DNA of 64,000 nt from Candidatus Poribacteria bacterium. Its GTDB lineage: Bacteria; Poribacteria; WGA-4E; WGA-3G. The DNA is taken from contig OZ244048.1 in assembly GCA_965215265.1 (NCBI GenBank), positions 1,952,001 to 2,016,000 on the forward strand, written 5' to 3'. How positions within the stretch are numbered: the first letter of the stretch is position 1; each line of letters opens with the position of its first letter. The translations under genes were made by a program, and so were the position numbers. The notes under the pieces are model-generated. The model did not search any database. It worked only from the letters and a program-made list of their open reading frames with translations, and was not told the origin of the DNA. This document shows positions 9,832 to 50,296 of the stretch, one piece after another.

Positions 9832-9927
9832 TGCCCCGGTAGGTACCAACGTCTTCTTGTAAAAGACATGACACGCACAAAAACTGGCGTGCTAAATCCG
9901 CTTTATTGCTTTCTGCAAGAAAAAAAA

Positions 9928-9956
9928 TTGACTAAAAACTGCAATTATGATAATTT
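9928..9956 (+). promoter_or_regulatory. probable sigma70 promoter
   Basis: TTGACT-N17-TAATTT with TG extension and upstream A-tract. Confidence 0.5.
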
Positions 9957-10068
9957 AAAGGAAAGCCGTTTGGCATACGCATTAAAAGTCGGGGCGGACG
10001 GTGCGTGTTGTGCAACTTATTGTTATATCCGCCCGAAGTGAATTATAAACAAGGAGGCAATATTATCA

Positions 10069-11151
10069 ATGAAATCGTTCAATAAATTGCAACATGGTGC
10101 TACAAAGGGCGTTCTATCGACATGGCTTAGTCTTGCCGTGCTATTTGCGTTTGCGCTCGGCCTTATAGGGTGTGGTACCTCCCTCAGCAACTTAGCTCCG
10201 ATTCAACCTGTGCAGAATATAGCAGATGCGTTGATGTTACAGAGCGAAAAACCTAACCAGGAAGTAGTTGTACCTGCTATTCCTGATGAGGACCTTGCTA
10301 AACCGATTCTGGACAAGTACGGGATGCGGACCGTTGGGTTCCGCATTGGTAAAGCGCAAGATGTGAACATGCAAGCGTTAACTTATCTTCTGGCGTTTAA
10401 CGAGTACGCGCATATGGAAGAAGAGTGGGGCCAATTTCTAAGCGAGTGGGGCGAAACCAAAACTCAGATTGAAATGGGCACGGGGGATGATAAGAAGATG
10501 GTTGATGCTATTTTGGTGTCAGATCTTCCGACACTCTTTCAGGTTCAGGCGAAACAGCCTATTCTGACCAAGACCCAAGATGGTGTTACGGTTTCGATTG
10601 TTTATTGGCGGCGCCCAGATTTAGACCGGAAGTACAACCGTGGCAACGCTTTTTCGCCTTTTTATGAGACAGAGGCACTCCACCAAGGTGACAAAACGGA
10701 TGTGTTTTACGTCAAGATTACCAACAATCGGAGTGAAAACATCCTCTTTGATGTGACAAAGTGCAAGATCGTTGACCAAGGGGAAAATGAATACTACGGT
10801 ATGAATTATGATGATTTAGAGGAACGTCTCACGCTAATTCCGCGTGCGACAGGGCTCTATGTAAAAAATGGGCTTGAAAATGCGCGGCAGATCTTGATTG
10901 AGCGGCGCATGAAGATTGTTGAAAAGCAGGTTGGTGCTCGTCGTACTGGTGTACCCCCAGGCGAGAGCGCAGAGGGTTTTTTGCCTTTTACCCAGACGAA
11001 GCTGAACGCGGTCGAACTGAACATCATTCTTCCTATTGAAAAGGCACCGCCACCGGGCGGCGCGCAGCGTTACCAAATGGTAGAGTTTAAATTTCCGTTT
11101 ACACACGACAGAGGTATTCGGCTGGCACAGCCTTCCCCGAGACGTTATTAG
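10069..11151 (+). CDS. hypothetical lipoprotein
   Basis: AAGGAGG SD; hydrophobic stretch ending in LIGC lipobox. Confidence 0.75.
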   Translation: MKSFNKLQHGATKGVLSTWLSLAVLFAFALGLIGCGTSLSNLAPIQPVQNIADALMLQSEKPNQEVVVPAIPDEDLAKPILDKYGMRTVGFRIGKAQDVNMQALTYLLAFNEYAHMEEEWGQFLSEWGETKTQIEMGTGDDKKMVDAILVSDLPTLFQVQAKQPILTKTQDGVTVSIVYWRRPDLDRKYNRGNAFSPFYETEALHQGDKTDVFYVKITNNRSENILFDVTKCKIVDQGENEYYGMNYDDLEERLTLIPRATGLYVKNGLENARQILIERRMKIVEKQVGARRTGVPPGESAEGFLPFTQTKLNAVELNIILPIEKAPPPGGAQRYQMVEFKFPFTHDRGIRLAQPSPRRY

Positions 11152-29974: not shown

Positions 29975-31495
29975 CTATAGGTTCGCCAATTTCTCAACAG
30001 CCCCGACCAGCTCCTCAACATATTTGTTGAACATATCAATGGCGAAGTTGGGCCAAACGCCGAGGACGATGGTTAAGATTCCGAGCGGCAGGAGTGTTAG
30101 AATTTCGCGTGGGTTGATTTCTGACAGGGATTCATATTTTGGATTGAGTTGTCCTAAGAAAACGCGTTGGAGTGTCCAGAGGAAGTATGCTGCGCCGACA
30201 ACGATGCCGATGGTTGACAAGACAGTCAACATCTTAAATTTGTCGTAAGCGCCGAGGAGGGAGAGCGCCTCACCAACGAATCCACTCAGACCGGGCAGTC
30301 CTAAAGATGCCATAAAGGCGAGCGTTGTGATGCCGGTATAGATGGGGACTCGGCTGCCTAATCCACCGAACCCATTAATTTCGCGGTGGTGTGCTCTATC
30401 GTAGAGGACACCGACGAGCAGGAAGAGCATTGCACTGATCACACCGTGGTTAAACATCTGAAGAATGGCACCTGTCACGCCGCTCTCATTTCGTGCTGCT
30501 AACCCCAAGATAACGAAACCCATGTGCCCGATACTAGAATACGCGACGAGTTTCTTAAAATCGGTTTGCGCTAATGCACAGAAAGAGCCGTAGACGATAT
30601 TAATGAATCCCAGGAGTGCCAAACTGTTGCCCCAAGTGCCTTGTCCGTTACAGAAAAAGTCCATGCCTTGCGGGAACATTTCCATGTTAACGCGGACGAG
30701 CCCGTAGGTTCCCATCTTCAAGAGGATGCCGGCAAGGATGACGCTGATGGCTGTAGGTGCCTCAACGTGTGCATCGGGTAGCCAAGTATGAAAGGGGAAA
30801 ATTGGCACTTTGACAGCAAACCCAATAAAAAAACCAATGAACACCCAGATCTGGAAACTCAAATCGGCGAGGGCGTGTCCGGGAGTGGCTGCCAATGTAA
30901 TGAGCGTTGGGATGTCGAACGTACGTGCCCCTGGTGCACCACTCTTAAGGTATACTGCTATCATTGCAACCAGCATCAACACACTGCCGAAGAGGGTATA
31001 GAGGAAGAATTTGATGGCGGCGTATTCGCGGCGCGGACCGCCCCACACGCCGATGAGAAAATACATGGGCAGCAGTGTCAGTTCAAAGAATACATAAAAC
31101 AAGAAGAGATCTAAGGAGGCGAAAAAGCCTAACATTCCGGTTTCCAATAGGAGAAAGAGGGCCATATACGCCTTAATGCCTTTTTCTATGTTTCGCCATG
31201 ATGCTAGGACACAAATTGGACCTAAGAGCGCAGTGAGGAGCAGCAGCGTTACGCTGAGCCCGTCAATGCCGACGTGATAACGGATGTTAAATGCCTGGAT
31301 CCAAGGGGCATCCATCTCGTACTGTGTTCCCGACATGCCGCGGTCGTAGTCTATAAATAGAAATACAGCGATGAAGAGCGGAACGAGTGTAAACATCAGC
31401 GTCACCCGTTTTACCAACTCATCCGACCCTCGTGGAAGAAGTAGAACAGCGAGCATCCCGAGCAACGGGACAAAAATCATTAGGGACAATAACAT
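29975..31495 (-). CDS. nuoM: NADH-quinone oxidoreductase subunit M
   Basis: DLFLFYVFFE, PFHTWLPDAHVEAPT, LLKMGTYG. Confidence 0.95.
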   Translation of the reverse strand: MLLSLMIFVPLLGMLAVLLLPRGSDELVKRVTLMFTLVPLFIAVFLFIDYDRGMSGTQYEMDAPWIQAFNIRYHVGIDGLSVTLLLLTALLGPICVLASWRNIEKGIKAYMALFLLLETGMLGFFASLDLFLFYVFFELTLLPMYFLIGVWGGPRREYAAIKFFLYTLFGSVLMLVAMIAVYLKSGAPGARTFDIPTLITLAATPGHALADLSFQIWVFIGFFIGFAVKVPIFPFHTWLPDAHVEAPTAISVILAGILLKMGTYGLVRVNMEMFPQGMDFFCNGQGTWGNSLALLGFINIVYGSFCALAQTDFKKLVAYSSIGHMGFVILGLAARNESGVTGAILQMFNHGVISAMLFLLVGVLYDRAHHREINGFGGLGSRVPIYTGITTLAFMASLGLPGLSGFVGEALSLLGAYDKFKMLTVLSTIGIVVGAAYFLWTLQRVFLGQLNPKYESLSEINPREILTLLPLGILTIVLGVWPNFAIDMFNKYVEELVGAVEKLANL

Positions 31496-31610
31496 TTTTT
31501 TTGTCTTTCCTTTCGGTTAAACAAAGGAGATTTGGAGTTTAATATTCCGTTTTTAAAGTCATTTGCCGGTTTGGCAAGTTTTAGTTTCGTCAAAAACCGT
31601 GGTAAAACTC

Positions 31611-33845
31611 TTACAGCGCCCGAAAGACTAAAATTAACACAACAATACCAGCGAGGACAACGATTAGATAGGTTTGAATCGCCCCGGTCTGGATGCGTCG
31701 AATTCTGCCTCCGACTGCCCAGGTGACTTGTGCGATACGATTGACGATGCCATCAACGACGCGGTTGTCAAAAAAGCCGGTGAAGGCAGCGAGGATATCA
31801 CGCGTGACAAGCCCAACGCCGTTAACGATGCCATCAACAATACTTCCATCAAATTGTGCAAAGAGCCGTGACTTCCATACTGTCAGGGCGACGAGTACGC
31901 CGTCATAAAATTCGTCAAAGTAGTATTTATTCCAGAATAGGTTGTAGACGGGGCGGAAGGTGTTCGCCACCGTCTCAGCGGAAAGCCGTTGTTTCTGATA
32001 AAATAGCCACGACAGGAATATGCCTAACGCAGCAACACAGATAGAGAGTACCATCGCGATAGTGTGTGCAGGACTATGTCCGTGATGTGCGTTGTCTGCG
32101 TGTGTGTCATGCGCGCCTTCTTCCTCAGCTGCAACGGCTTCAGAGATACCGAAGAACGCGAATGTTCCTTTGGTATTATTTTCATGAGTCGGGATTCGGT
32201 GTAAGTGCGCATGAGCAGGCTGATGCAGATGCGGCTGCGGCGGTACTTTCACATAATCGGCGTTAAACCATAATGTATTGACAACAGGAAAACTGAGCAA
32301 CGCTAAGACGATAAGCGGTACGGTCATCGTCTTTGGGGATTCATGCGCCATATCGTGCATTTGTTGATTGCGTGGCTCCCCGAAAAATGTCATAAAGATC
32401 AGGCGAAACATATAGAAGGCAGTAATACCCGCTGCAAAAAGTGCGATACCGAATAGAATATAGTGATGGACAGAGTTCCATGCCATCGCGCGGTCCAGTA
32501 CCCCACCTAAGATTGCGTCCTTGCTCCAAAACCCGGAGAAGAGAAACGGCACCCCAGAGATAGACAGTGTAGCGATGAGCATTGTGACGAAAGTAATCGG
32601 CATTTTATGCCGAAGTCCCCCCATATTACGCATATCTTGATCTGGTGGGATGTCGGCACCGTGTTCATAGGCGAGTTCATGGTTGTTGTGCTCGTGCGTA
32701 TCCCGGTGTTCGTGTGCTGACTCGTTGTGTGCATGTTCATGTTCATGATTATGGTTGTGGGCGTGCATCGCGTGGAAGGCATGAATGACGCTACCGGAAC
32801 CGAGGAACAACAGTGCCTTGAAAAACGCGTGCGTTGTGAGGTGGAATAGCCCAGCTACATAACTTCCTACGCCAATTCCGAGCATCATGTACCCGAGTTG
32901 GCTAATAGTAGAATATGCCAAGACCCGCTTAATGTCAAAACGGACGATGGCGATAGTCGCTGCGATGAGTGCTGTAATGCCACCTATATAAGCAATCACA
33001 AGAGACGATGTTTCTGTTAAAATCGGGAACATCCGTGCGGTGAGGTATACCCCCGCTGCTACCATCGTTGCGGCATGAATGAGGGCACTTACCGGTGTGG
33101 GACCCTCCATTGCATCAGGGAGCCAGGTGTGCAGTGGTACCTGGGCAGATTTCCCGATTGCGCCACAAAAAATTAGCACGCCTGCGATTGAAAGCCACAC
33201 CATATCTGCAGTGGTTAGTTGAGTCGCCGCGAGTCCGAAAATCCCGTTATCGCCATGGAGTGCAAGCGTGTTGAATTTGGTAAACAGCATCATCATGCCG
33301 ATGAACATGCCGATGTCCCCTACGCGCGTAGTCAAGAACGCTTTTTTACATGCATTCGCTGCAGAGTCTTTCTCAAACCAGAAACCGATGAGCAGATATG
33401 AACAGAGCCCGACTAACTCCCAACCGATATAGATGCCGAGCAGGTTGTCAGAAACGACTAAAAAGAGCATCGAAAACGAGAAGAGAGAGAGATAAGCGAA
33501 AAATCGTGGGTATCTCGGATCACCGTGCATATAGCCCATTGAGAAAATATGCACGAGACTACTCACGAGCGTCACAACAATCAACATGATTGCCGTGACA
33601 CTGTCAAAATAGAATCCCATAGAAAAGTTAACCTGCCCGATGGAAATCCATTCGACGGTGTGCGCTTCAGGTTCCGGAATTACCTGTTGCCAAAGTAGTA
33701 GTGAACAGACAAGCGCGATGAGCATTGCTGCTGTAGAGATATAGTCTTGTCGAGGTACACGCCGTTTTGCGAGTGACATGAGTCCGAAGATAGCAAAAGC
33801 GGCGAGTGGACAGAGTAAGAGAATGCTAATTAGCGGGACAGTCAT
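31611..33845 (-). CDS. nuoL: NADH-quinone oxidoreductase subunit L with His-rich loops
   Basis: GKSAQVPLHTWLPDAMEGPTPVSALIHAATMV, HAFFKALLFL. Confidence 0.95.
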   Translation of the reverse strand: MTVPLISILLLCPLAAFAIFGLMSLAKRRVPRQDYISTAAMLIALVCSLLLWQQVIPEPEAHTVEWISIGQVNFSMGFYFDSVTAIMLIVVTLVSSLVHIFSMGYMHGDPRYPRFFAYLSLFSFSMLFLVVSDNLLGIYIGWELVGLCSYLLIGFWFEKDSAANACKKAFLTTRVGDIGMFIGMMMLFTKFNTLALHGDNGIFGLAATQLTTADMVWLSIAGVLIFCGAIGKSAQVPLHTWLPDAMEGPTPVSALIHAATMVAAGVYLTARMFPILTETSSLVIAYIGGITALIAATIAIVRFDIKRVLAYSTISQLGYMMLGIGVGSYVAGLFHLTTHAFFKALLFLGSGSVIHAFHAMHAHNHNHEHEHAHNESAHEHRDTHEHNNHELAYEHGADIPPDQDMRNMGGLRHKMPITFVTMLIATLSISGVPFLFSGFWSKDAILGGVLDRAMAWNSVHHYILFGIALFAAGITAFYMFRLIFMTFFGEPRNQQMHDMAHESPKTMTVPLIVLALLSFPVVNTLWFNADYVKVPPQPHLHQPAHAHLHRIPTHENNTKGTFAFFGISEAVAAEEEGAHDTHADNAHHGHSPAHTIAMVLSICVAALGIFLSWLFYQKQRLSAETVANTFRPVYNLFWNKYYFDEFYDGVLVALTVWKSRLFAQFDGSIVDGIVNGVGLVTRDILAAFTGFFDNRVVDGIVNRIAQVTWAVGGRIRRIQTGAIQTYLIVVLAGIVVLILVFRAL

Positions 33846-33861
33846 AACGTTCCTTTAACCT

Positions 33862-34170
33862 TTAACCTTTTAAGGTATCCACTTCATCAGGGCGAATGCT
33901 ACCGAATTCGCGATAGATAGCGAGAATAATCGCGAGGAAGACCGCGGCTTCTGCGGCGGCGAGAACAATACCGAAAATAGCGATTATCTGTCCATCAATG
34001 TTTTCAGGCGGCGTAGCAAAGCGCGAAAACGCAGCAAAGTTAAGATTACACGAATTGAGAATGAGCTCGATGCCCATCAAAATGCTGATGGCGTTCCGGC
34101 GCGTCAGCACAGCGAAAATGCCGAGCGTAAACAGAATCGCACTGATTACCAAATAGTGTTGTAGAGTCAT
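33862..34170 (-). CDS. nuoK: NADH-quinone oxidoreductase subunit K
   Basis: RRNAISILMGIELILN, AAAEAAV. Confidence 0.95.
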   Translation of the reverse strand: MTLQHYLVISAILFTLGIFAVLTRRNAISILMGIELILNSCNLNFAAFSRFATPPENIDGQIIAIFGIVLAAAEAAVFLAIILAIYREFGSIRPDEVDTLKG

Positions 34171-34231
34171 TTTTTTTTCGTATGGTTCCGTGTCTTTTTA
34201 CCGTGGCCTTTGCCTCTGTAGGGTTGCCGAA

Positions 34232-34753
34232 CTACTCGTCCCGCACCTCTTTTCTCGAAATCAGGGCTGCGCCAATTAAAGCCACTAACAGCAGTACTGA
34301 TACCACTTCAAAGGGGAGCAGGAACTGCCCATTCAAAATTGATTCACCGATGCGTTCGGTTGTCGGTTCAAGTTGGGTCCCGTCGTCAGCGAGGTTCTTC
34401 CATTGCGGGGTTTTGGCAATGATAGTCAGGAGCAGCATGAGCAGTGCTAAAGCGACGCCGGCCCCTAACCAGAGTTGTCCACGTTCAATGTGGATGCGCA
34501 TCTCTAAGCGGCCACTCGTCATCATCACCCCGAATAGGATAAGGACAAGAATGCCGCCGACGTAGACAATCACCTGCGTTGCCGCGAGGAAATCTGCTTG
34601 TAAAAAGACGTAAAGCCCGGCGACACCAAAAAGCGTCACCATCAACGAAAACGCTGCGTGGACGATGTTCCGCACCGTTACCACAACGAGTGCCGATGCA
34701 ATAGTTAACAGCGCGAAACCGTAAAAAATCAACGTTTTAAGTGTAAATTCCAT
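34232..34753 (-). CDS. nuoJ: NADH-quinone oxidoreductase subunit J
   Basis: QVIVYVGGILVL, LPFEVVSVLLLVALIGA. Confidence 0.95.
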   Translation of the reverse strand: MEFTLKTLIFYGFALLTIASALVVVTVRNIVHAAFSLMVTLFGVAGLYVFLQADFLAATQVIVYVGGILVLILFGVMMTSGRLEMRIHIERGQLWLGAGVALALLMLLLTIIAKTPQWKNLADDGTQLEPTTERIGESILNGQFLLPFEVVSVLLLVALIGAALISRKEVRDE

Positions 34754-34895
34754 CTATCAAACTAACCTTTTGTCATTCTAATCCTTGGATGACAGAAAAC
34801 AAATTTTCGGTATAACCGGCCGGAGTGTTTCTGGCGAGAGGGCACTTAGGACTTCACCGCCAATTCGTCTAATCGCTTTAAGCACCAAATTTCCT

Positions 34896-35612
34896 CTAAC
34901 CTGCTGCTGCTGTGTCTGCTCCATTGTCCTTATCGTACATCTCTTGCTTGGCAAACTGAAAGATTAAATCTGACCGGTCAAATTTAGAGTACTCAATACC
35001 TTCGAGAGAATCCTTCATGGTGAGGCACTCTGTCGGGCAAACCTCTGTGCAGAGGCCACAATACATGCAGAGGGACATGTCGATATCAAACTGATCGAGG
35101 TAGAAAACGACAGGATTCCTTCTGACAAGCCGTGTGACTTCTTCGCTTGGAACCGTCTGTGTACGGTTATCATCCGGCGATGTCTCAAACCGGTCTGCCA
35201 CAATTTGCAATCCGTGGCGAGAGGTGACGTTTGTCACCGTTAAAGGCTGCCCCGGGATGACTTTTTCATCTCCTTCAACAATCCCGATGATTTCACGTCC
35301 GTCCTTTAGGTGCACGACGTTCAGACTATCCCACAAGCGCTGACCTTTGGGGAGTTTGGTGCCGGTAATGGTAATGCAATCGACGGGACAGATCATCTCG
35401 CATTTTTTACAGCCGATGCAATCTTCTATTCTATTGTAGAGCTGCCCGCGGTATCCTTTAGGAATTTCTCGGACGTTCTGCTTTTTTTCATAGTCGTGTT
35501 CGTACGGGTATTGATGCGTGACGTTCGGTTCAAAGAATTGCCGGATTGTCACCCGCATCCCGACGAGCACCGTCCAAACGCCTCTGTAGATGTTGCGTAA
35601 ATATTTATCCAT
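34896..35612 (-). CDS. nuoI: NADH-quinone oxidoreductase subunit I with an internal insertion
   Basis: CIGCKKCEMICP and CMYCGLCTEVCP 2x[4Fe-4S] motifs; lies between nuoH and nuoJ. Confidence 0.9.
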   Translation of the reverse strand: MDKYLRNIYRGVWTVLVGMRVTIRQFFEPNVTHQYPYEHDYEKKQNVREIPKGYRGQLYNRIEDCIGCKKCEMICPVDCITITGTKLPKGQRLWDSLNVVHLKDGREIIGIVEGDEKVIPGQPLTVTNVTSRHGLQIVADRFETSPDDNRTQTVPSEEVTRLVRRNPVVFYLDQFDIDMSLCMYCGLCTEVCPTECLTMKDSLEGIEYSKFDRSDLIFQFAKQEMYDKDNGADTAAAG

Positions 35613-35629
35613 GTCGTATTTTCCTCCTT

Positions 35630-36877
35630 TTAAACGGGACTCGTTTGCGGTTTCGGTGCGAGAATTTTCCCTATAATTACGTACGCTTGGACGAGCCCAA
35701 CTGCTATAATCGCGATACTGATGCCGGTGCTGAGTGGTGTATCCTTTTCAAAGATGAGTCCCCAGATGCCGGTGCCTAAGATGTTAAAGAAAGCGAGGGG
35801 GATGAAGTATTTCCAACACAGATTCATCAGTTGATCTACGCGGAGGCGCGGGAGTGTCCATCGCAGCCACATCATGAGGAAGACTAGCCCTAACGTTTTG
35901 ATGACAAAGCCGGGCAATCCGCCAAGCAGATTGAATCCGCTGCCAAGCAGGGCGAATTCTGGCAAGACACCTTCCCAACCACCGAGGAAGAGGGTTACAG
36001 CGATTGCACTCACGGCGAACATGTTGGCGTATTCAGCGATGAAGAAAAGCGCAAATCGCATGCCGCTGTATTCGGTGTGAAACCCGGCGACGATTTCGGA
36101 TTCCGCTTCCGGTAAATCAAAAGGGGTTCGGTTGACTTCAGCGATCGAGGAAATAAAGAAGATAAAGAATGCGATAAACGTGAAAGGTGTACGGAAGATG
36201 AGCCAATCCGAGATGCCCCCGGATTGGTTTGCTACAATTTCCTGCATATTCAAACTTTCAACGAGCATGACGACGGTAAGGATAGAGAGTCCGAGTGGAA
36301 TTTCATAACTGACGATTTGCGCTGCCGAACGTAAAGAACCTAAAAGCGACCATTTGCTGTTAGAAGACCAGCCTGCCATGATAACGCCCATAACAATCAC
36401 GGAGGATATCGCCATGATATAGAAGATACCGATATTAAATTCGCTGACGAGGATGTTTTCTCCAAACGGAATCGCTGCAAAAACTGCAAAGGAACAGGCG
36501 AAAATGATATAAGGTGCAAGCAGAAAGAGGAGTTTATCGCCTTGGGGCGGAATATAATCCTCTTTGAAGAGGAGTTTCACGCCATCTGCCAACGTTTGGA
36601 GGAGCCCCCAGGGTCCGACTCGCATCGGTCCGGTTCTGTTCTGAAATCGAGCAGCGACTTTCCGCTCTGCAAGGACTAAAACCAGTGGCAGCAGCGGCAC
36701 AATCGCGACGAAAATACCGGCACACCCAAACATAACGAGTACTGAACCGAGTTCCCCAGAAAAAAGTTCGGCGGCCCCCGGCAGTAAGGGAACTATGACA
36801 TTCTGGATAAACCTTTCCGCCCAGTTTCCACTGGTGGGTTCCTGTACAAAGAAACTATTGGGGAAAATATCTGGCAT
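35630..36877 (-). CDS. nuoH: NADH-quinone oxidoreductase subunit H
   Basis: ERKVAARFQNRTGP, NRTPFDLPEAESE, RWTLPRLRVDQLM. Confidence 0.95.
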   Translation of the reverse strand: MPDIFPNSFFVQEPTSGNWAERFIQNVIVPLLPGAAELFSGELGSVLVMFGCAGIFVAIVPLLPLVLVLAERKVAARFQNRTGPMRVGPWGLLQTLADGVKLLFKEDYIPPQGDKLLFLLAPYIIFACSFAVFAAIPFGENILVSEFNIGIFYIMAISSVIVMGVIMAGWSSNSKWSLLGSLRSAAQIVSYEIPLGLSILTVVMLVESLNMQEIVANQSGGISDWLIFRTPFTFIAFFIFFISSIAEVNRTPFDLPEAESEIVAGFHTEYSGMRFALFFIAEYANMFAVSAIAVTLFLGGWEGVLPEFALLGSGFNLLGGLPGFVIKTLGLVFLMMWLRWTLPRLRVDQLMNLCWKYFIPLAFFNILGTGIWGLIFEKDTPLSTGISIAIIAVGLVQAYVIIGKILAPKPQTSPV

Positions 36878-36946
36878 CTAATCTCCTTATCATTTTGTCT
36901 ACATTCATGAGACCTGTCAAGGCAGTAACAAGCGAGCTCTACTAAC

Positions 36947-38152
36947 TTACCGGTCAACTTCTCCCATTACAATATCAATACTGCCAATAATTGCAATAAT
37001 GTCTGCCACCATAAGCCCGTGGCTCAGTTCTCGTAGTGCACTCAAAGCACTGAAGCAGGGCGAACGTCCTTTGACGCGGACCGGCTTGGGGGTTCCATCA
37101 CTAATAATATAGAAGCCGAGTTCTCCACGTGGTGCTTCACTACGGAAATAGATTTCGCCTTTCGGCGGCCGTACAGCCTTTAAATTTGCCATGACTGGGC
37201 CGTCAGGGAGTCCTTCTGCCAAAATCTGCCGGACAATCCGTACCGACTCTTTCATCTCGTCCATCCGGATCTTGTAACGGCTCCAACAATCCCCTACCGT
37301 AGCCCCCAATTCCGGGATATCCTTTGCGACCGGGACATCAAATTCAAACCGGTCGTAGATGGAGTAAGGTTCATCTCGCCGTAAGTCCCAATCAACGCCT
37401 GAGCCACGAAGATTCGGTCCGGTTGCCCCGTAGCTGAGTGCCATTTCAGCAGACATAACAGCTACGCCTGTTGTACGTTGACTGAAGATGCTATTTTTGG
37501 TTAGGAGCTCGTTGTACTCGTCAATCATCGGTTCGAAATAGTCAAGAAAACGTTCGATCTCGTCTAAAAAGTTCTGTTCGAAGAGTGAGCCGGGTTCCAT
37601 GGGAATGATTTCGGAGACACCGCCGATCCGGATGTAGTTATAGGTGAGGCGTGCGCCGCACACTTTTTCAAAAAGGAGAAGCAACCGTTCCCTGTCACGG
37701 AAGGCGTAGAGAAAGGGGGTAAAAGCGCCAATATCCATGCCGTATGTCCCGAATGAAAGGAGGTGACTGGCGATGCGATTCAACTCACAGATCAGTACCC
37801 GGAGGTATTCTGCGCGCTCCGGTATTCTGAAATTCTTGCTGGAGTCTGCTTGCAACAGTTTCTCGACAGCGAGGCAGAACCCCCAATTCTGGTTCATCGC
37901 CGCGACGTAATCCATCCGGTCAGTGAAAGGAATAATTTGTGGGTAGGAGAGGTTCTCCGAATGTTTCTCAAAACAGCGGTGGAGGTATCCGATGTGCGGA
38001 ATGGCCTCACGCACCACTTCGCCTTCCAATTTCAACTCAAGGCGCAAAACACCGTGCGTGCTTGGGTGCTGAGGGCCCATGTTCACCACCATCTCATCGG
38101 CGAACGGTTTGAGTTCAATAATCTTGCTTTCTGTTCCGTTTGTGGTTTCCAT
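36947..38152 (-). CDS. nuoD: NADH-quinone oxidoreductase subunit D
   Basis: NMGPQHPSTHGVLRL, GYLHR, DIVMGEVDR. Confidence 0.95.
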   Translation of the reverse strand: METTNGTESKIIELKPFADEMVVNMGPQHPSTHGVLRLELKLEGEVVREAIPHIGYLHRCFEKHSENLSYPQIIPFTDRMDYVAAMNQNWGFCLAVEKLLQADSSKNFRIPERAEYLRVLICELNRIASHLLSFGTYGMDIGAFTPFLYAFRDRERLLLLFEKVCGARLTYNYIRIGGVSEIIPMEPGSLFEQNFLDEIERFLDYFEPMIDEYNELLTKNSIFSQRTTGVAVMSAEMALSYGATGPNLRGSGVDWDLRRDEPYSIYDRFEFDVPVAKDIPELGATVGDCWSRYKIRMDEMKESVRIVRQILAEGLPDGPVMANLKAVRPPKGEIYFRSEAPRGELGFYIISDGTPKPVRVKGRSPCFSALSALRELSHGLMVADIIAIIGSIDIVMGEVDR

Positions 38153-38362: not shown

Positions 38363-38605
38363 CTACATTAACGCGTCTTCGACAACTTCAGGGAGCTCCA
38401 CGGTACTCGGGTCGACATCAATAGGGTATTCAGTCCCATAAGCCTCAACGAGTTCATCAAAAGTGACGTTATCTACGCGCTCCAGATCGTCACCGGGGTA
38501 GACAAGCCAGGCACCATAACAGCCATCACAACTGACAAGGTCGGCGTTGTCTTGTTAGATCGGGAACTGCGTGAGCGGGTTATTGCAATCTGGACAAGGT
38601 AACAT
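38363..38605 (-). pseudogene. acidic zinc-ribbon protein (81 codons) interrupted by in-frame TAA at 38555-38557
   Basis: AAGGAG SD; MLPCPDCNNPLTQFPI*QDNADLVSCDGCYGAWLV...EVVEDALM; both CxxC pairs in one frame across the stop. Confidence 0.7.
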
Positions 38606-38622: not shown

Positions 38623-39810
38623 TTAACCAGCAGCCGGTGCGAAGGTTTCAGGATTCTCAGCGGCTGCATCGTAATCGTCAATCAATTTCGTAATGCTCGG
38701 ATTTTCGCCACAGAGTGGGCAATTTTTGTCGCGCTGAGTTTGCACCTCACGGTACGTCATACTGAGAGCTTCGTACAGTATCAATCTACCGATGAGCGGT
38801 TCGCCGATGCCGATAATATACTTAATGGCTTCGGTTGCCATCATGACACCAATTACGCCTGGGAGCACGCCCAGTACACCTGCTTCACTTCAGCTAGGTA
38901 CCATACCCGGCGGTGGCGGGGTGGGGAACATGCACCGGTAGCAGGGCCCCTCGTGCGGTTTAAAGAGAGAGACTTGCCCCTCAAATTGGAAGATACTGCC
39001 GTGGACGATGGGCTTATTCATCAATACCGCTGCGTCGTTGACGAGATAGCGCGTAGCGAAATTATCACAGCCGTCAACAATTAGGTCGTACTCTGCAAAA
39101 ATCTCCTCTACGTTATCTGCTGTTAGCCGGAGGTTATACGGTTTAATGTCTACATCCGGGTTGAGGGATTTGATAGTGGTTGTTGCGGACTGTACCTTCG
39201 GTGTCCCGACTGCCTCGGTGCGGTGGAGGATCTGGCGTTGCAGGTTACTCAGCTCGACAACATCAGAGTCAATGACACCGAGGTGCCCCACGCCCGCTGC
39301 CCCAAGGTAAACACCGGCTGGCGAACCTAAGCCGCCTGCACCCACGAGCAACACTTTGGCATCAAGTAGTTTGGATTGCCCTCTTTCGCCGACTTCAGTC
39401 AACATAAAGTGCCGGCTGTACCGGTCGAGTTGTTCGTTACTCATCGGTTTGTCTTGTGCTGTTGGGTACCCGGCGGCCATCCAGTCTCTATAGCCACCTG
39501 CCATTGAGACGGTGTCGGTATATCCCATTTCACGCAGTGCCTTTGCGGCAAGAAGAGAGCGCAGGCCTGCGGCGCAATAGACAACGACTTTCTGCTCCCG
39601 GTCTGGAATATAGTTCTCAACAGAAAATTCGAGCATGCCGCGGGTGACGTGGACGGCCTCAGGGATATATCCGGCACGATATTCATCTTCATCACGGACA
39701 TCCAGCAGCACGAAATCGCCACCGGCATCCTGATCCGATTTCACGTCAGCGACGGACACTTCTGGGATTTCTGTTTTTGCCTCTTCAACGATTTGCCTAT
39801 AGGACTTCAT
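38623..39810 (-). CDS. moeB: rhodanese-MoeB/ThiF fusion (MoeZ-like), probable selenoprotein with UGA at 38890-38892
   Basis: YCAAGLRS rhodanese loop; RYSRH, GAGGLG, SNLQRQ, CYRC, CPLC; PPPGMVPS-TGA-SEAGVLGVLPGVIG continues in frame. Confidence 0.85.
38859..38874 (-). promoter_or_regulatory. candidate bacterial SECIS hairpin
   Basis: CTGGG-CGTGCT-CCCAG starting 16 nt after the UGA, with G at loop position 2. Confidence 0.55.
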
Positions 39811-47446: not shown

Positions 47447-48166
47447 ATGCACATTAAAGCACTTAATTATCCTTTAACGCATATTCCTGCTGGTGAATTC
47501 ACAATGGGAACTATCCCAACACAATTTCGCAAGACAGATCCGGAGGAACCGCAGCGAACTGTTACGCTTGATGCTTATGCCATCGGTACCTATCACGTAA
47601 CGAATACGCAGTACGCAGCATTTGTTGACGACACCGGCTGCGCCGCCCCACAGTTTTGGCAAGATGAACGTTTTAACGCCGCAGATGTGCCTGTCGTTGG
47701 GGTCAGTTGGTATGATGCAATGAATTTTTTAGAATGGCTGCGTATACAGACAGGGGAGTCCTATCGTTTACCGACAGAAGCAGAATGGGAAAAAGCGGCG
47801 CGCGGAACGGACGGACGCGAATATCCATGGGGGAACGCTTGGGAACTCGGTAAGGCAAACACCTCAGAAGCACAGTTCAAACGCTTAGTACCGGTTGGCA
47901 ATTATCCAGAGGGCGTTAGCCCATACGGTTGCTACGATATGGCAGGAAATGCCTATTGTTGGTGTAACGACTGGTTTCATCCGGAAACCTACCGTTATTC
48001 TCCAATAGATAATCCACAAGGTCCCATTGAAGGGCGGCGTAAGGTTATCCGAGGCGGTTCTTGGGTGGCGCGTGGTGAATTTGCCGCCCGCTGTGCTAAC
48101 CGCGCCGCTTATGAACCCATCCGAACTGTTCACAACGTTAGCTTCCGCATCGCACTTGACGTATGA
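47447..48166 (+). CDS. formylglycine-generating enzyme (SUMF1/FGE-sulfatase) domain protein
   Basis: PVVGVSWYDA, RLPTEAEWEKAARG, YDMAGN, RGGSW. Confidence 0.9.
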   Translation: MHIKALNYPLTHIPAGEFTMGTIPTQFRKTDPEEPQRTVTLDAYAIGTYHVTNTQYAAFVDDTGCAAPQFWQDERFNAADVPVVGVSWYDAMNFLEWLRIQTGESYRLPTEAEWEKAARGTDGREYPWGNAWELGKANTSEAQFKRLVPVGNYPEGVSPYGCYDMAGNAYCWCNDWFHPETYRYSPIDNPQGPIEGRRKVIRGGSWVARGEFAARCANRAAYEPIRTVHNVSFRIALDV

Positions 48167-49299
48167 GACAAAAAGATTATCCTCACTTCCAGAGTTCGCT
48201 ATTGGATTGGTTTAAAACTTACCAGCGCGCAATGCCGTGGCGTAACACGCGAGATGCTTATCGCATCTGGGTTTCTGAAGTAATGCTTCAACAGACACAG
48301 GTCAAAAAAGTTTTAGAATACTATTCCAAATTCATTGACCGGTTTCCGGCAGTCCACCAGTTGGCAGCAGCAGAACTACAAGATGTACTAAAAACGTGGG
48401 AGGGATTGGGGTATTATGCGAGAGCGCGTAACCTTCACAAAGCAGCACAAATTATTGTCAAAGAGCTCGATGGACAAATACCGCACAACTATGACATCTT
48501 TCGAAAATTGCCGGGGGTTGGGGCTTACAGTGCTGCGGCAGTGCAAAGCATCGCCTTTAATGCGCCTTATGCAGCTGTAGACGGCAACGTCAAACGGGTC
48601 TTGGCCCGTCTGTTTCTTATAGAAATACCTATTAATGATTCTGTGTCTACGAAGCAATTTCAACAGCAAGCAGATAAGCTTCTAGACCGGGGGAACCCTG
48701 GAATCTTCAACCAAGCGATGATGGAATTGGGCGCAACCATCTGCCGTCCACAATCTCCTACCTGTATCGTATGCCCGGTGCATACCTTCTGTAAAGCCTT
48801 CCAGACCGCACGGCAAAATGAAGTGCCAGTGCGGCGGAAGGCAAAGCCGATTCCGGAATATCCTATCGCCGTCGGCGTTATTCAGAAAATCCGTCCAGAA
48901 ATCATACCATCTCAGGGCTTCGTGGCAGAGTCGGGCTCCGAGGTATCTCCGCCCGCCTCAGAAATTTTGATAACCCAGCGACCCCTGGACGGGTTGCTCG
49001 GTGGACTCTGGGAGTTTCCGGGGGGTCGGATTGCGGAAGGTGAGACACCCGAAGAAGCCTGCATCCGCCACATTGCCGAAGCTGTCAATCTGTCTGTCAC
49101 TAATCTGCGATACCTCACTCAAGTCAAACATGCTTACACCCATTTTAAGATTGTGGTTGATGTATTCCAATGCGATTATCAAGCGGGTGAGCTCGCGTTG
49201 AATGGTCCGATAGATGCCAAATGGATTCCGGTTGAGGAAATTGCCCAATACCCGTTTCCACGTGCCAATCATAAGTTTATTCCGCTTTTAGTTCGCTGA
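48163..49299 (+). CDS. mutY: A/G-specific adenine glycosylase
   Basis: WVSEVMLQQT, GLGYYARARN, LPGVG, VDGNV, CRPQSPTCIVCP, NUDIX-like C-terminus. Confidence 0.95.
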   Translation: MRQKDYPHFQSSLLDWFKTYQRAMPWRNTRDAYRIWVSEVMLQQTQVKKVLEYYSKFIDRFPAVHQLAAAELQDVLKTWEGLGYYARARNLHKAAQIIVKELDGQIPHNYDIFRKLPGVGAYSAAAVQSIAFNAPYAAVDGNVKRVLARLFLIEIPINDSVSTKQFQQQADKLLDRGNPGIFNQAMMELGATICRPQSPTCIVCPVHTFCKAFQTARQNEVPVRRKAKPIPEYPIAVGVIQKIRPEIIPSQGFVAESGSEVSPPASEILITQRPLDGLLGGLWEFPGGRIAEGETPEEACIRHIAEAVNLSVTNLRYLTQVKHAYTHFKIVVDVFQCDYQAGELALNGPIDAKWIPVEEIAQYPFPRANHKFIPLLVR

Positions 49300-49399
49300 A
49301 CTGGAACCCAGGCAAGGAGTTTTGTCACTTCCTACGCCGAAGAACCGATGAAACAAATTCCAGCACGATACGGCCCCCTTCCTATTTTTCGCAGATCGA

Positions 49400-49419
49400 G
49401 AAAGCAGGCTACGCCTGCT
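49400..49419 (-). terminator. probable terminator
   Basis: AGCAGGC-GTA-GCCTGCT followed by TTCT on the minus strand. Confidence 0.45.
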
Positions 49420-49474
49420 AAAACTATCTCCGCGGACAGCATCCAGACACGGCTAAAGCAAGTTGCCGCAAGAA

Positions 49475-50296
49475 CTACTTGTTTTGTATAAGCGGTTTAT
49501 ATGAACGTGCGATGGCACGTTTGACCTCTTCACGCATTGAAAGATCCTTTTCGCTTTCCTGCAGCAGAAACTGTTCAAGCTCCGCAGTGCGATTCGGGCT
49601 GACCGCTCTCAGGGTCCGGAACCCTTCCTCCGGACGTTTTCCCTCAAAGAACGGAATGACATCTGCGAAACGTTCATCTTTCGGGGTATCTACAAACGGC
49701 ATGATTTTATCAATCTCGTAAGAGCGAGCGGCATAGAGTTGGGTAAGAGTTCTTTGCGTTGTTGGATTCGGAAACAACTTGTTGCTCGCTTCCGCACGCT
49801 CAATTTTTTCCTGAAGCGTTGTAGGAGCGCCTGTCAACGCTTTTAACCGGCCATCTACATAAATGTGAACTTCCGGAATATCCCCAAACTGCTTTATTAA
49901 TTTCTGCCGAACGATTTCGTTCATCGCCGGGTCGCGCGGATCGAAGAACTCTCCCTCTGAATCAGTTTGTATTTTCTCCACTTCATCCATTGGGGTATCC
50001 TGTGTCCACGGATTATCAGTATGTGTGCGGTCATCGATACCTTGTGCAGCGTCGTTCGACCAAGCAGGTGCTGCGACGTTTTCGGATTGTGAATCAGAAT
50101 CAGTTGTGTGGGTTACAGAGTTGTGTTGAGGCAAACTTTCAACACTCGGTGTAGCAGTTGGAAGTTGTTTTGTCGTTTCCGTTTGTGGGGTTTTTTGAAG
50201 ATTTTCAGAAAACCGTTTCGTATCCAGATACAAGTATAGACTTCCAATACCGCTAAGAAGGACAATGCCGATACAAATCAGGTAAAAAAGGCGCAT
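49475..50296 (-). CDS. hypothetical membrane-anchored protein with a low-complexity T/Q/S linker
   Basis: GAGGA SD before ATG 50296; N-terminal TM helix. Confidence 0.75.
   Translation of the reverse strand: MRLFYLICIGIVLLSGIGSLYLYLDTKRFSENLQKTPQTETTKQLPTATPSVESLPQHNSVTHTTDSDSQSENVAAPAWSNDAAQGIDDRTHTDNPWTQDTPMDEVEKIQTDSEGEFFDPRDPAMNEIVRQKLIKQFGDIPEVHIYVDGRLKALTGAPTTLQEKIERAEASNKLFPNPTTQRTLTQLYAARSYEIDKIMPFVDTPKDERFADVIPFFEGKRPEEGFRTLRAVSPNRTAELEQFLLQESEKDLSMREEVKRAIARSYKPLIQNK

Follow-up and report, generated by a model that had tools for sequence, protein, structure and literature searches.

We have identified in Candidatus Poribacteria a gene with one in-frame UGA, located on the minus strand of a 64-kb stretch of DNA (the window, that is, the whole stretch analysed), and comparative sequence analysis confirmed it as a real selenoprotein gene. 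It adds a well-supported member to a selenoprotein family already known from prediction (Sec-MoeB) and does not represent a new kind. The gene combines a ThiF/MoeB domain, a UGA at the position of a conserved Cys, conservation of this UGA together with its flanks, a predicted SECIS element and a genome carrying the Sec machinery. These sequence features supported the original prediction that the gene probably encodes a selenoenzyme.

Gene structure and domain composition

Translation of the minus strand bore out that the two ORFs initially listed at window positions 38623-39810 belong to a single 396-codon frame, with codon 307 (38890-38892) as its sole internal TGA and a closing TAA at 38623-38625. 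The peptide surrounding the UGA (...PPPPGMVPS-U-SEAGVLGVLPG...) was also the one originally given. Gene calling with table 11 breaks the frame into a 306-aa ORF (38890..39810) and an 81-aa ORF with a GTG start (38623..38868). The features of the gene are as follows:

38623..39810, minus strand: complete gene of 395 residues closed by a TAA stop and carrying a single in-frame UGA (Sec307), predicted to encode a rhodanese-ThiF/MoeB type sulfur-carrier adenylyltransferase/sulfurtransferase (translation, NCBIfam NF006444, orthologues in 153/176 genomes)
39475..39747, minus strand: rhodanese domain, residues 22-112 (Pfam PF00581, E = 9e-19)
39574-39576, minus strand: Cys79 codon of the rhodanese active-site loop C79-AAGLR-S (C79, R84 and S85 at least 90% conserved in alignment A1)
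38716..39420, minus strand: ThiF/MoeB adenylation domain, residues 131-365 (Pfam PF00899, E = 4.6e-85)
39325-39342, minus strand: nucleotide-binding GAGGLG, residues 157-162 (G157-G162 invariant in alignment A1)
38890..38892, minus strand: UGA codon 307, putatively read as Sec, in the crossover loop and aligned with the catalytic-loop Cys of Cys-type relatives (53/53 loci; 13/13 Cys-type relatives)

The zinc cysteines C290/C293 and C364/C367, as well as D249, are invariant in alignment A1. Among the family profiles, NCBIfam NF006444 (PRK08762) matched with 536.6 bits against a cut-off of 449, with residues 5-384 covering profile positions 4-383 of 387. The MoeZ model NF005902 scored 395.6 bits, below its cut-off of 647, and the rhodanese domain of the Sec-MoeB gene is N-terminal, an architecture that is not that of MoeZ and Uba4/MOCS3. 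Scores were also below the cut-offs for the E. coli-type MoeB equivalog TIGR02355 (220.7 vs. 376.55) and the ThiF equivalog TIGR02356 (251.5 vs. 275.25). Based on frame, domains and alignment, the locus is very probably one intact gene, in which Sec encoded by UGA replaces the catalytic-loop Cys.

Automated annotation splits this gene, as had been anticipated: among the best 120 database matches, 29 are ORFs of 306-307 aa that end at the UGA, one of them named 'ThiF family adenylyltransferase [Candidatus Poribacteria bacterium]'. Because such database ORFs stop at the UGA, this systematic mis-annotation would cause pathway reconstructions for Poribacteria and many uncultured phyla to lose the enzyme or to assign it a wrong size.

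Conservation of the UGA and presence of the Sec machinery

The TGA occupies the identical column in all 53 orthologue loci, and a single TGA was likewise counted in 60/61 related genomes. An orthologue was present in 153 of the 176 genomes of Candidatus Poribacteria, down to 58% identity, and all 150 matches listed, out of the 153 matching genomes, carried one TGA. Within one order, nearly all genomes have the Sec form (153/159). Column 307 is occupied by Cys in 13/13 Cys-type relatives, which comprise 12/12 full-length homologues and the genome's own Cys paralogue; hence the UGA does lie at the Cys of the conserved PSCxEAGV motif, as the original prediction held. The loop cysteines of Uba4 (6YUB) and E. 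coli ThiF (1ZFN) fall opposite the UGA as well. The 88 codons located 3' of the TGA remain conserved, including those of the invariant C364/C367.

The genome carries a tRNA-Sec (80 bits, anticodon TCA) located 49 nt after selB, a selA, and a selD that has its own in-frame TGA, with tRNA-Sec, SelB, SelA and SelD all scoring above the family cut-offs. At the level of the phylum, selB was above cut-off in 167/176 genomes. TGA is a normal stop codon in this genome, since 472 of the 2157 stop-to-stop frames with 300 codons or more end in it, and selA, selB and the other genes searched (selD apart) have no internal stops. Two findings had been named as fatal to the selenoenzyme reading, namely a genome lacking Sec machinery and close orthologues carrying TGC/TGT; selA, selB, selD and tRNA-Sec were all present and the orthologues keep TGA. 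Taken together, the conserved column in orthologues, the Cys in Cys-type relatives and the Sec machinery argue that the TGA is not a nonsense mutation.

A read-through filter applied to the 64-kb window returned four candidates, the Sec-MoeB gene and three others. Translation discarded two of the latter: 48160-49488 consists of an apparent gene end (by eye, of a MutY-type gene) followed by non-coding sequence, and 9832-11148 of upstream junk plus a gene. The remaining candidate lies at 48685-49287 on the minus strand.

The predicted SECIS hairpin and competing readings of the UGA

Decoding of UGA307 as Sec would require that SelB, together with tRNA-Sec, binds a small hairpin located 16-36 nt downstream, inside the codons for V-L-G-V-L-P-G:

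38857..38877, minus strand: predicted SECIS hairpin, codons 312-318 (sequence; RNAalifold consensus; codon freezing at 314-316)

With the T of the TGA numbered 1, the stem is formed by C19-G23 and C30-G34, and the loop C24-U29 reads CGUGCU (38864-38869). At the base there are a G16:C36 pair, a bulged U17 and an A18.G35 mismatch, which is C-G in most relatives. The loop thus begins 21 nt past the UGA (20 nt between them) and has G at its second position, followed by U; this is the hairpin with bacterial SECIS geometry that had been described at the outset, and RNAalifold independently recovered it. The bSECISearch-model constraints, in the form quoted in PMC13188914, comprise an apical loop of 3-9 nt, an upper stem of 4-16 bp, a G at loop position 1 or 2 with U after it, a distance of 16-37 nt from the UGA, and an MFE of -7.5 or lower. 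The Poribacteria hairpin lies within all of them (6-nt loop, 5-6-bp stem, 20-nt spacing, MFE of -7.6 kcal/mol). Compared with the bacterial SECIS consensus, it has the particularity of overlapping a highly conserved peptide, the codons of which are themselves prone to form a hairpin. The hairpin in the window itself is the weak version, with a stem of just 5 bp (6 in most relatives), A at position 18 where 44/53 orthologues have C, and an MFE that is barely below the -7.5 limit, against a mean of -10.0 kcal/mol in the 53 orthologues.

The best support for the hairpin is given by frozen synonymous sites, on which we relied together with the 16-nt hairpin core. Among the 89 invariant columns that are at least four-fold degenerate, where the mean codon entropy is 1.66 bits, only the three at codons 314-316 use a single codon in 53/53 orthologues. 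At the same positions, 4-5 codons are used by 41 Cys paralogues of the same genomes, and 4-8 when Cys paralogues and Cys forms are considered together. The 16-nt core was found in 53/53 Poribacteria Sec forms and 25/60 Sec forms of other phyla, and in 0/118 metagenomic Cys forms that have the same peptide. Pairing is kept in 97.5% of the stem cells of the orthologue alignment; within the order, the changes in the stem were single and wobble-compatible, and none was a compensatory double change.

Other measures were not retained as evidence. All 500 shuffles gave the observed covariation value within the order, so that this count speaks neither for nor against the hairpin. Folding the 76 nt after the UGA as a single sequence gave an MFE of -18.7, no better than that of shuffles (z = +0.6), in a structure that omits the hairpin. 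The mean hairpin MFE differs between Sec orthologues (-10.0) and Cys paralogues (-5.2 kcal/mol), but it was dropped as a Sec/Cys discriminator because the 118 metagenomic Cys forms with an identical LGVLPG peptide fold equally well (mean of -9.6 kcal/mol, with 79/118 at -7.5 or lower). For the same reason, the fold energy and the loop "GU," which corresponds to the first two bases of a Val codon, are in part by-products of coding.

These data bear on four other ways of reading the UGA. The codon could be read through without selenium, either by Cys carried on tRNA-Sec under selenium scarcity or by a near-cognate tRNA inserting Cys or Trp. Cys forms are clearly functional elsewhere, but the Sec pathway is complete, including selD and selA, the hairpin is under selection at synonymous sites, and TGA is kept across 153 genomes although a Cys codon (TGC or TGT) is only one substitution away. 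We therefore consider this reading very unlikely. About as unlikely is that the UGA terminates translation, producing a 306-residue protein made of rhodanese and a truncated ThiF, with or without a separate 81-residue C-terminal piece (a split gene). These are exactly the two ORFs obtained with table 11, and the 306-aa form exists in databases; however, such a protein would break off within the ThiF domain (residues 131-365) and lack the second zinc CxxC, the 88 downstream codons are in frame, conserved and abutting the TGA in every one of the orthologue loci, and both parts form one protein in the Cys relatives.

The probability is negligible for the two remaining readings, both of which the data refuted. 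That lesions or errors occur in this assembly is indicated by a neighbouring small ORF with a private TAA; nevertheless, a nonsense mutation, pseudogene or sequencing error is contradicted by the occurrence of the same TGA among relatives and across the phylum, as counted above, and at no fewer than 80 loci of other phyla. A genome-wide reassignment of TGA, for example to Trp or Gly, without a Sec-specific mechanism is incompatible with the share of long frames that TGA ends, with the uninterrupted selA, selB and other genes searched, and with just four read-through candidates in the 64-kb window. Decoding of UGA307 as Sec, which we consider highly probable, is hence the reading that we have retained below.

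Relation to known enzymes, proposed chemistry and genomic context

The Sec-MoeB family goes back to a 2005 prediction from ocean metagenomes by Zhang, Fomenko and Gladyshev (11 sequences, PMC1088965), and the 2008 GOS analysis counted 19 Sec-MoeB sequences (PMC2398784); catalogue entries appear in PMC9312934 and PMC13188914, the catalogued representative being MBT7809913.1. A 2026 review places MoeB under "Predicted with high confidence" and not under "Experimentally verified". These sources, as far as their accessible parts go, agree with the original statement that Sec-MoeB has been predicted from metagenomes and has no characterised example. They describe a family that, like the Poribacteria gene, has a ThiF/MoeB domain, a single UGA in frame, a stem-loop downstream of it and Cys homologues that are widespread, and that rests on comparative genomics only. 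The same parts of these descriptions give "-" in the motif column for the Sec position and no domain order, with 0 occurrences of Poribacteria. The Sec position and the architecture of the Poribacteria gene would be those of the published family. Selenoprotein specialists would not be surprised by the present gene, given that the catalogues have included MoeB since 2005.

Our pattern scan placed the Sec form in more than ten phyla, with at least 80 loci outside Poribacteria carrying the same TGA. Sec forms with the order E1-like plus C-terminal rhodanese were found in Verrucomicrobia, SAR324 and others (6/6 tested). In a FastTree of the ThiF core (180 rows), the Sec forms were interleaved with Cys forms, which is to be taken as a rough indication, the Cys forms being only the top matches to the Sec-MoeB query and several supports being low.

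The Cys-type members of NF006444/PRK08762 have the same domain order and length as the Poribacteria gene, and the Cys forms of 396 aa (Binatia, Deltaproteobacteria and metagenomes) are 56-65% identical to it. They differ in having Cys at column 307, where the Poribacteria gene has UGA/Sec and a predicted SECIS. Uba4/MOCS3/MoeZ share both domains, with a persulfide held on the rhodanese Cys, whereas their rhodanese domain is C-terminal, the reverse of the order found here, and where the Poribacteria protein has Sec307 their crossover loop has the Cys engaged in the thioester with Urm1. The adenylation domains of E. coli ThiF (1ZFN/1ZUD) and MoeB (1JW9) align over residues 123-369 (E about 1e-56); both proteins are devoid of a rhodanese domain.

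By homology with these enzymes, the ThiF domain would adenylate a sulfur carrier of the ThiS/MoaD type at its C-terminal glycine. From its place on the flexible crossover loop, Sec307 would then attack the acyl-adenylate to yield an acyl-selenoester, the putative counterpart of the Uba4 Cys225/Cys202 thioester. Finally, a persulfide on the rhodanese Cys79 would take the acyl group, and the carrier would be released as thiocarboxylate. Sec would surpass Cys both as a nucleophile and as a leaving group, and would be less easily lost to irreversible oxidation.

The catalytic role of residue 307 is suggested by its alignment to the Uba4 loop Cys, read together with two reports on Uba4, in which Cys225 forms a thioester (PMC6007339) and Cys202 lies in the crossover loop (PMC7527816). 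Residue 307 also appears to be equivalent to the loop Cys of E. coli ThiF, which is at chain position 186 in a construct two residues longer and would by count be the native Cys184. We take this ThiF Cys184 to have an acyl-disulfide role, and Cys187 of E. coli MoeB, at the equivalent position, to be dispensable. If so, not every member of the family uses this position in catalysis. A strict Cys79-Sec307 relay is also hard to reconcile with a Latescibacterota Sec form that lacks the rhodanese Cys. Since Sec here occupies the E1-like catalytic-loop position at which Uba4 forms its thioester, a Sec/Cys comparison could probe the thioester step, and the coexistence of the Sec form and a Cys paralogue in one order offers a clean natural comparison.

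The L-G-V-L-P-G codons give a GG/CC hairpin that has G-U in its loop and is suitably spaced from the catalytic Cys codon. A speculative and rather doubtful proposal is that the code for the MoeB crossover loop is pre-adapted as a SECIS and that the Poribacteria Sec enzyme is a specialised, oxidation-resistant acyl-selenoester E1, kept beside the Cys paralogue for a different carrier, e.g., a CysO-like one. Such pre-adaptation would account for the existence of Sec forms with either domain order, for their spread over more than ten phyla and for their interleaving with Cys forms in the rough tree. If true, this would be the first natural selenoester E1.

The genome encodes two E1-like genes, the second MoeB being of Cys type and without a rhodanese domain, and four ThiS/MoaD-type carriers: a MoaD adjoining MoaE (1.8 Mb from the Sec-MoeB gene), a ThiS adjoining ThiG, a CysO-like carrier with a PLP enzyme, a PAPS reductase and a JAB protease as neighbours, and a fourth next to a molybdopterin dehydrogenase. 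No carrier gene was found among the neighbours of the Sec-MoeB gene, so that the gene neighbourhood was set aside as a clue to the substrate. Upstream, on the opposite strand, an unassigned ORF is accompanied by genes for a GT9 glycosyltransferase and a HAD hydrolase. The 3' neighbours are a zinc-ribbon ORF and then nuoD-H-I-J-K-L-M:

38363..38605, minus strand: conserved zinc-ribbon ORF of 80 codons, 17 nt downstream of the Sec-MoeB gene (PF13453 match)

This ORF is probably co-transcribed with the Sec-MoeB gene. It is broken here by a TAA at codon 17 (38555-38557) and is intact, with Glu at codon 17, in 31 of the 52 relatives' loci searched with tblastn.

A single reading frame across UGA307

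The genome is one 4.83-Mb contig (G+C 48%) in which TGA is an ordinary stop, closing 472 of the 2157 frames that reach 300 codons or more. The original prediction joined two ORFs of this contig into one gene, and translation bears this out: table 11 splits the frame into 306 and 81 aa at its sole internal TGA.

Window 38623-39810, minus strand: Sec-MoeB gene, a single 396-codon frame (start MKSYRQ..., stop TAA)
Window 38890-38892, minus strand: codon 307, the sole internal TGA
Read-through protein, residues 22-112: rhodanese domain (E = 9e-19)
Read-through protein, residues 131-365: ThiF/MoeB adenylation domain (E = 4.6e-85)

The read-through protein matched the rhodanese-MoeB family NF006444 (PRK08762) with 536.6 bits (cut-off 449), and scored under the respective cut-offs of the MoeZ, E. 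coli-type MoeB and ThiF models. Its nucleotide-binding GAGGLG is intact in the alignment, the rhodanese loop reads C79-AAGLR-S, and both zinc CxxC pairs (C290/C293 and C364/C367) are kept. The second pair lies within the 88 codons 3' of the TGA, which are in frame and conserved.

We have examined 61 related genomes from 13 genera in four families of one order. In 60 of them a full-length orthologue was present that carried a single TGA (58-92% identity), the exception, G055, giving the paralogue only. The TGA column was identical in all 53 orthologue loci read at the DNA level, within the peptide PPPPG[ML]VP[SG]-U-[SN]EAGVLGVLPG. At E <= 1e-120, Sec-MoeB was matched in 153 of the phylum's 176 genomes, and among the matches listed (150 of the 153) every orthologue carried one TGA. 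The remaining seven families yielded no orthologue at this threshold (0/17 genomes).

Genomes with a Sec-MoeB orthologue in four Poribacteria families (E <= 1e-120)
f1: 108/111, plus the window's genome
f2: 9/11
f3: 28/29
f4: 7/7

The claim that UGA replaces a conserved loop Cys also held. Column 307 is Cys in 12/12 full-length homologues (56-65% identity, ~396 aa) and in the genome's own short paralogue (C1:1028867-1029637; 63% identity), from which the rhodanese domain is absent.

The search for selA, selB, selD and tRNA-Sec recovered all four in the genome, the tRNA-Sec (80 bits, anticodon TCA) being located 49 nt downstream of selB. At the phylum level, selB scored above the family cut-off in 167/176 genomes, and the four genomes with a TGA orthologue and no selB match are just 80-81% complete. 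Conservation, the Sec/Cys pair, the machinery, the genetic code and the downstream sequence thus form five lines arguing that TGA307 is a real codon, and on this sequence evidence the gene is a genuine selenoprotein gene. The reading as a probable selenoenzyme is accordingly supported, and the observation behind it confirmed.

The selD gene (L019, G000:C1:4044300-4045226, plus strand; TIGR00476, 359.6 bits) has one in-frame TGA itself, and the genome's SelD is probably a selenoprotein too. Sec-containing SelD is common.

The hairpin downstream of UGA307

The hairpin with bacterial SECIS geometry that had been noted 3' of UGA307 is real, with the following elements (T of TGA = 1).

C19-G23 / C30-G34: stem
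24-29: apical loop CGUGCU, with G at loop position 2
G16:C36: extra pair below the stem, across bulged U17

RNAalifold recovered the same helix from 53 orthologue sequences, and the hairpin satisfies the limits of the published bacterial SECIS model as quoted in PMC13188914.

Hairpin of the window copy against the model limits quoted in PMC13188914
Apical loop, 3-9 nt: 6 nt
Upper stem, 4-16 bp: 5 bp (most relatives 6 bp)
G at loop position 1-2, then G/U: G at 2, then U
Spacing from UGA, 16-37 nt: 20 nt
MFE <= -7.5 kcal/mol: -7.6 (30-nt segment)

The mean MFE over the 53 orthologues was -10.0 kcal/mol. However, fold energy is not evidence for a SECIS here, since Cys forms encoding this peptide match the Sec forms in hairpin stability (mean of the Cys forms, -9.6 kcal/mol), 79 of 118 metagenomic Cys forms being at <= -7.5 kcal/mol. 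The codons for Gly-Gly and for Pro-Gly complement each other by nature, and the loop "GU" is simply how the Val codon begins, so that codons of the LGVLPG peptide mimic a SECIS hairpin on their own. In addition, the region 3' of the UGA showed no folding advantage over shuffled sequence (z = +0.6), and no compensatory double changes were found in the stem within the order, where the shuffle control was flat.

The evidence for the SECIS is instead codon freezing, and selection at synonymous sites is the strongest we have. Only three of the 89 invariant, at least four-fold-degenerate columns have the same codon throughout the 53 orthologues: Gly314 GGC, Val315 GTG and Leu316 CTC, which make the stem top and loop (mean codon entropy over the 89 columns, 1.66 bits). 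The rare stem changes are wobble-compatible (C->U facing G, A->G facing U). As controls, each of positions 314-316 is filled by 4-5 codons among 41 Cys paralogues of these genomes, and the 118 metagenomic Cys forms with the identical LGVLPG peptide have a codon entropy of 1.6-2.3 bits at every one of the six codons. The 16-nt core CTGGGCGTGCTCCC[AG]G was present in 53/53 Poribacteria Sec forms and in none of these 118 Cys forms.

Spread of the Sec form and earlier predictions

One-genome-per-species contigs were scanned with a degenerate TGA-motif pattern, which matched at least 120 stretches, 80 of which were examined. The TGA was in frame with the motif in all 80, with at least 188 open codons 5' of it in 79 (just 16 in L170). 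The Sec forms came from Poribacteria, Rokubacteria/Methylomirabilota, Latescibacterota, Entotheonella/Tectomicrobia, Syntrophaceae and other Thermodesulfobacteriota, Verrucomicrobia, Planctomycetota, Actinomycetota, Chloroflexi, Nitrospinota and SAR324. Assigned by length, 63/80 have the rhodanese-ThiF order (Pfam agreeing in 3/3 tested) and 12/80 are ThiF with a long C-terminus, for which Pfam gave ThiF followed by a C-terminal rhodanese in 6/6 tested; the other five are partial.

A hairpin with its loop starting at position 24-26 was found in 78/80 Sec forms, and in some clades the helix is preserved while its sequence differs (e.g., GUGCUGGG...CCCGGCAC in Latescibacterota). Among loci L126-L205, 25 of the 60 Sec forms that are not from Poribacteria also have the 16-nt core (positions 19-34 after the TGA), including Rokubacteria, Actinomycetota, Verrucomicrobia and SAR324. 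Lateral spread of the Sec allele could account for such sharing, as could convergent constraints from SelB. In a rough FastTree of the ThiF core, the Poribacteria Sec forms are a single clade (support 0.99) and Sec and Cys clades are interleaved, a hint of repeated Cys/Sec switches.

Two loci depart from the common form. The rhodanese loop of a Latescibacterota Sec-type rhodanese-MoeB (L133:389-1564, plus strand) is VYGAQGQG, without the catalytic Cys, so Sec in that lineage cannot use a same-chain rhodanese-Cys persulfide. The called ORF of a Planctomycetia Sec-type MoeB (L160:638-1549, plus strand) is the ThiF domain alone; its first ~30 residues resemble a rhodanese end, hence an N-terminal part may be lost to a stop or frameshift.

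That Sec-MoeB had been predicted from metagenomes, with no characterised example, agrees with the literature as far as its text goes. "Molybdopterin biosynthesis MoeB protein" was a new selenoprotein family of 11 sequences in Sargasso Sea data (PMC1088965), 19 sequences were reported from GOS data (PMC2398784), and the family was counted as not detected in Olavius symbionts (PMC1976440). Reviews of 2022 and 2026 catalogue it (PMC9312934, PMC13188914), the latter under "Predicted with high confidence", after its "Experimentally verified" block. Literature searches on Sec-MoeB and Sec-ThiF gave no experimental study, and no paper on this gene was found among titles and abstracts on Poribacteria selenocysteine. 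The position of Sec and the domain architecture may be shown in figures and supplements of the family papers. The gene therefore adds a well-documented member to a family that had been predicted and catalogued before. Our analysis contributes its near-universal presence in one Poribacteria order alongside a Cys paralogue, a SECIS backed by codon freezing, Sec forms in both domain orders, and a caution that codons of this peptide by themselves imitate a SECIS hairpin.

Predicted function and gene neighbourhood

Judging from its domains and alignments, Sec-MoeB is probably an E1-like enzyme that activates a ThiS/MoaD-type sulfur carrier and has a sulfurtransferase domain of its own. In the alignment, Sec307 shares its column with the SCGEAG loop Cys of Chaetomium Uba4 (6YUB) and the loop Cys of E. 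coli ThiF (1ZFN), by count Cys184 (chain position 186, the construct being two residues longer than native). The Uba4 Cys forms a thioester with the Urm1 C-terminus and is then displaced by the rhodanese persulfide (PMC6007339, PMC7527816). By analogy with this chemistry, Sec-MoeB would adenylate the carrier, an acyl-selenoester would form on Sec307, the Cys79 persulfide would attack it and the carrier thiocarboxylate would be released.

The genome has two E1-like genes and four ThiS/MoaD-type carriers, and no carrier gene adjoins the Sec-MoeB gene.

MoaD: adjoins MoaE
ThiS: adjoins a DAO-type oxidase and ThiG
CysO-like carrier: in a PLP-enzyme / PAPS-reductase / JAB-protease cluster (L119, G000:C1:3334327-3337587)
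ThiS/MoaD-family carrier: directly 3' of a molybdopterin-binding dehydrogenase large subunit (MoCoBD_1/2; L121, G000:C1:2296730-2299981)

The L119 cluster encodes a PLP-dependent enzyme, a PAPS-reductase-family protein, a ThiS-family carrier and a Prok-JAB protease, and resembles the CysO/CysM/Mec+ type of cysteine-synthesis arrangement. Its carrier is a candidate substrate of the rhodanese-containing E1.

The Sec-MoeB gene heads a cluster in which a small zinc-ribbon ORF is followed by complex I genes on the same strand.

Window 38363-38605, minus strand: zinc-ribbon ORF (PF13453), 80 codons, starting 17 nt past the Sec-MoeB stop
Window 29975-38152, minus strand: nuoD-H-I-J-K-L-M, 3' of the Sec-MoeB and zinc-ribbon genes

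No nuoA, nuoB or nuoC lies immediately upstream of nuoD, and thus the nuo genes appear split over several loci. In the window copy of the zinc-ribbon ORF, codon 17 is an in-frame TAA; of the 52 relatives' loci searched (families f1-f3), 31 encode Glu at this codon and keep the ORF intact. The ORF is a conserved neighbour of Sec-MoeB, broken or mis-sequenced in this genome.
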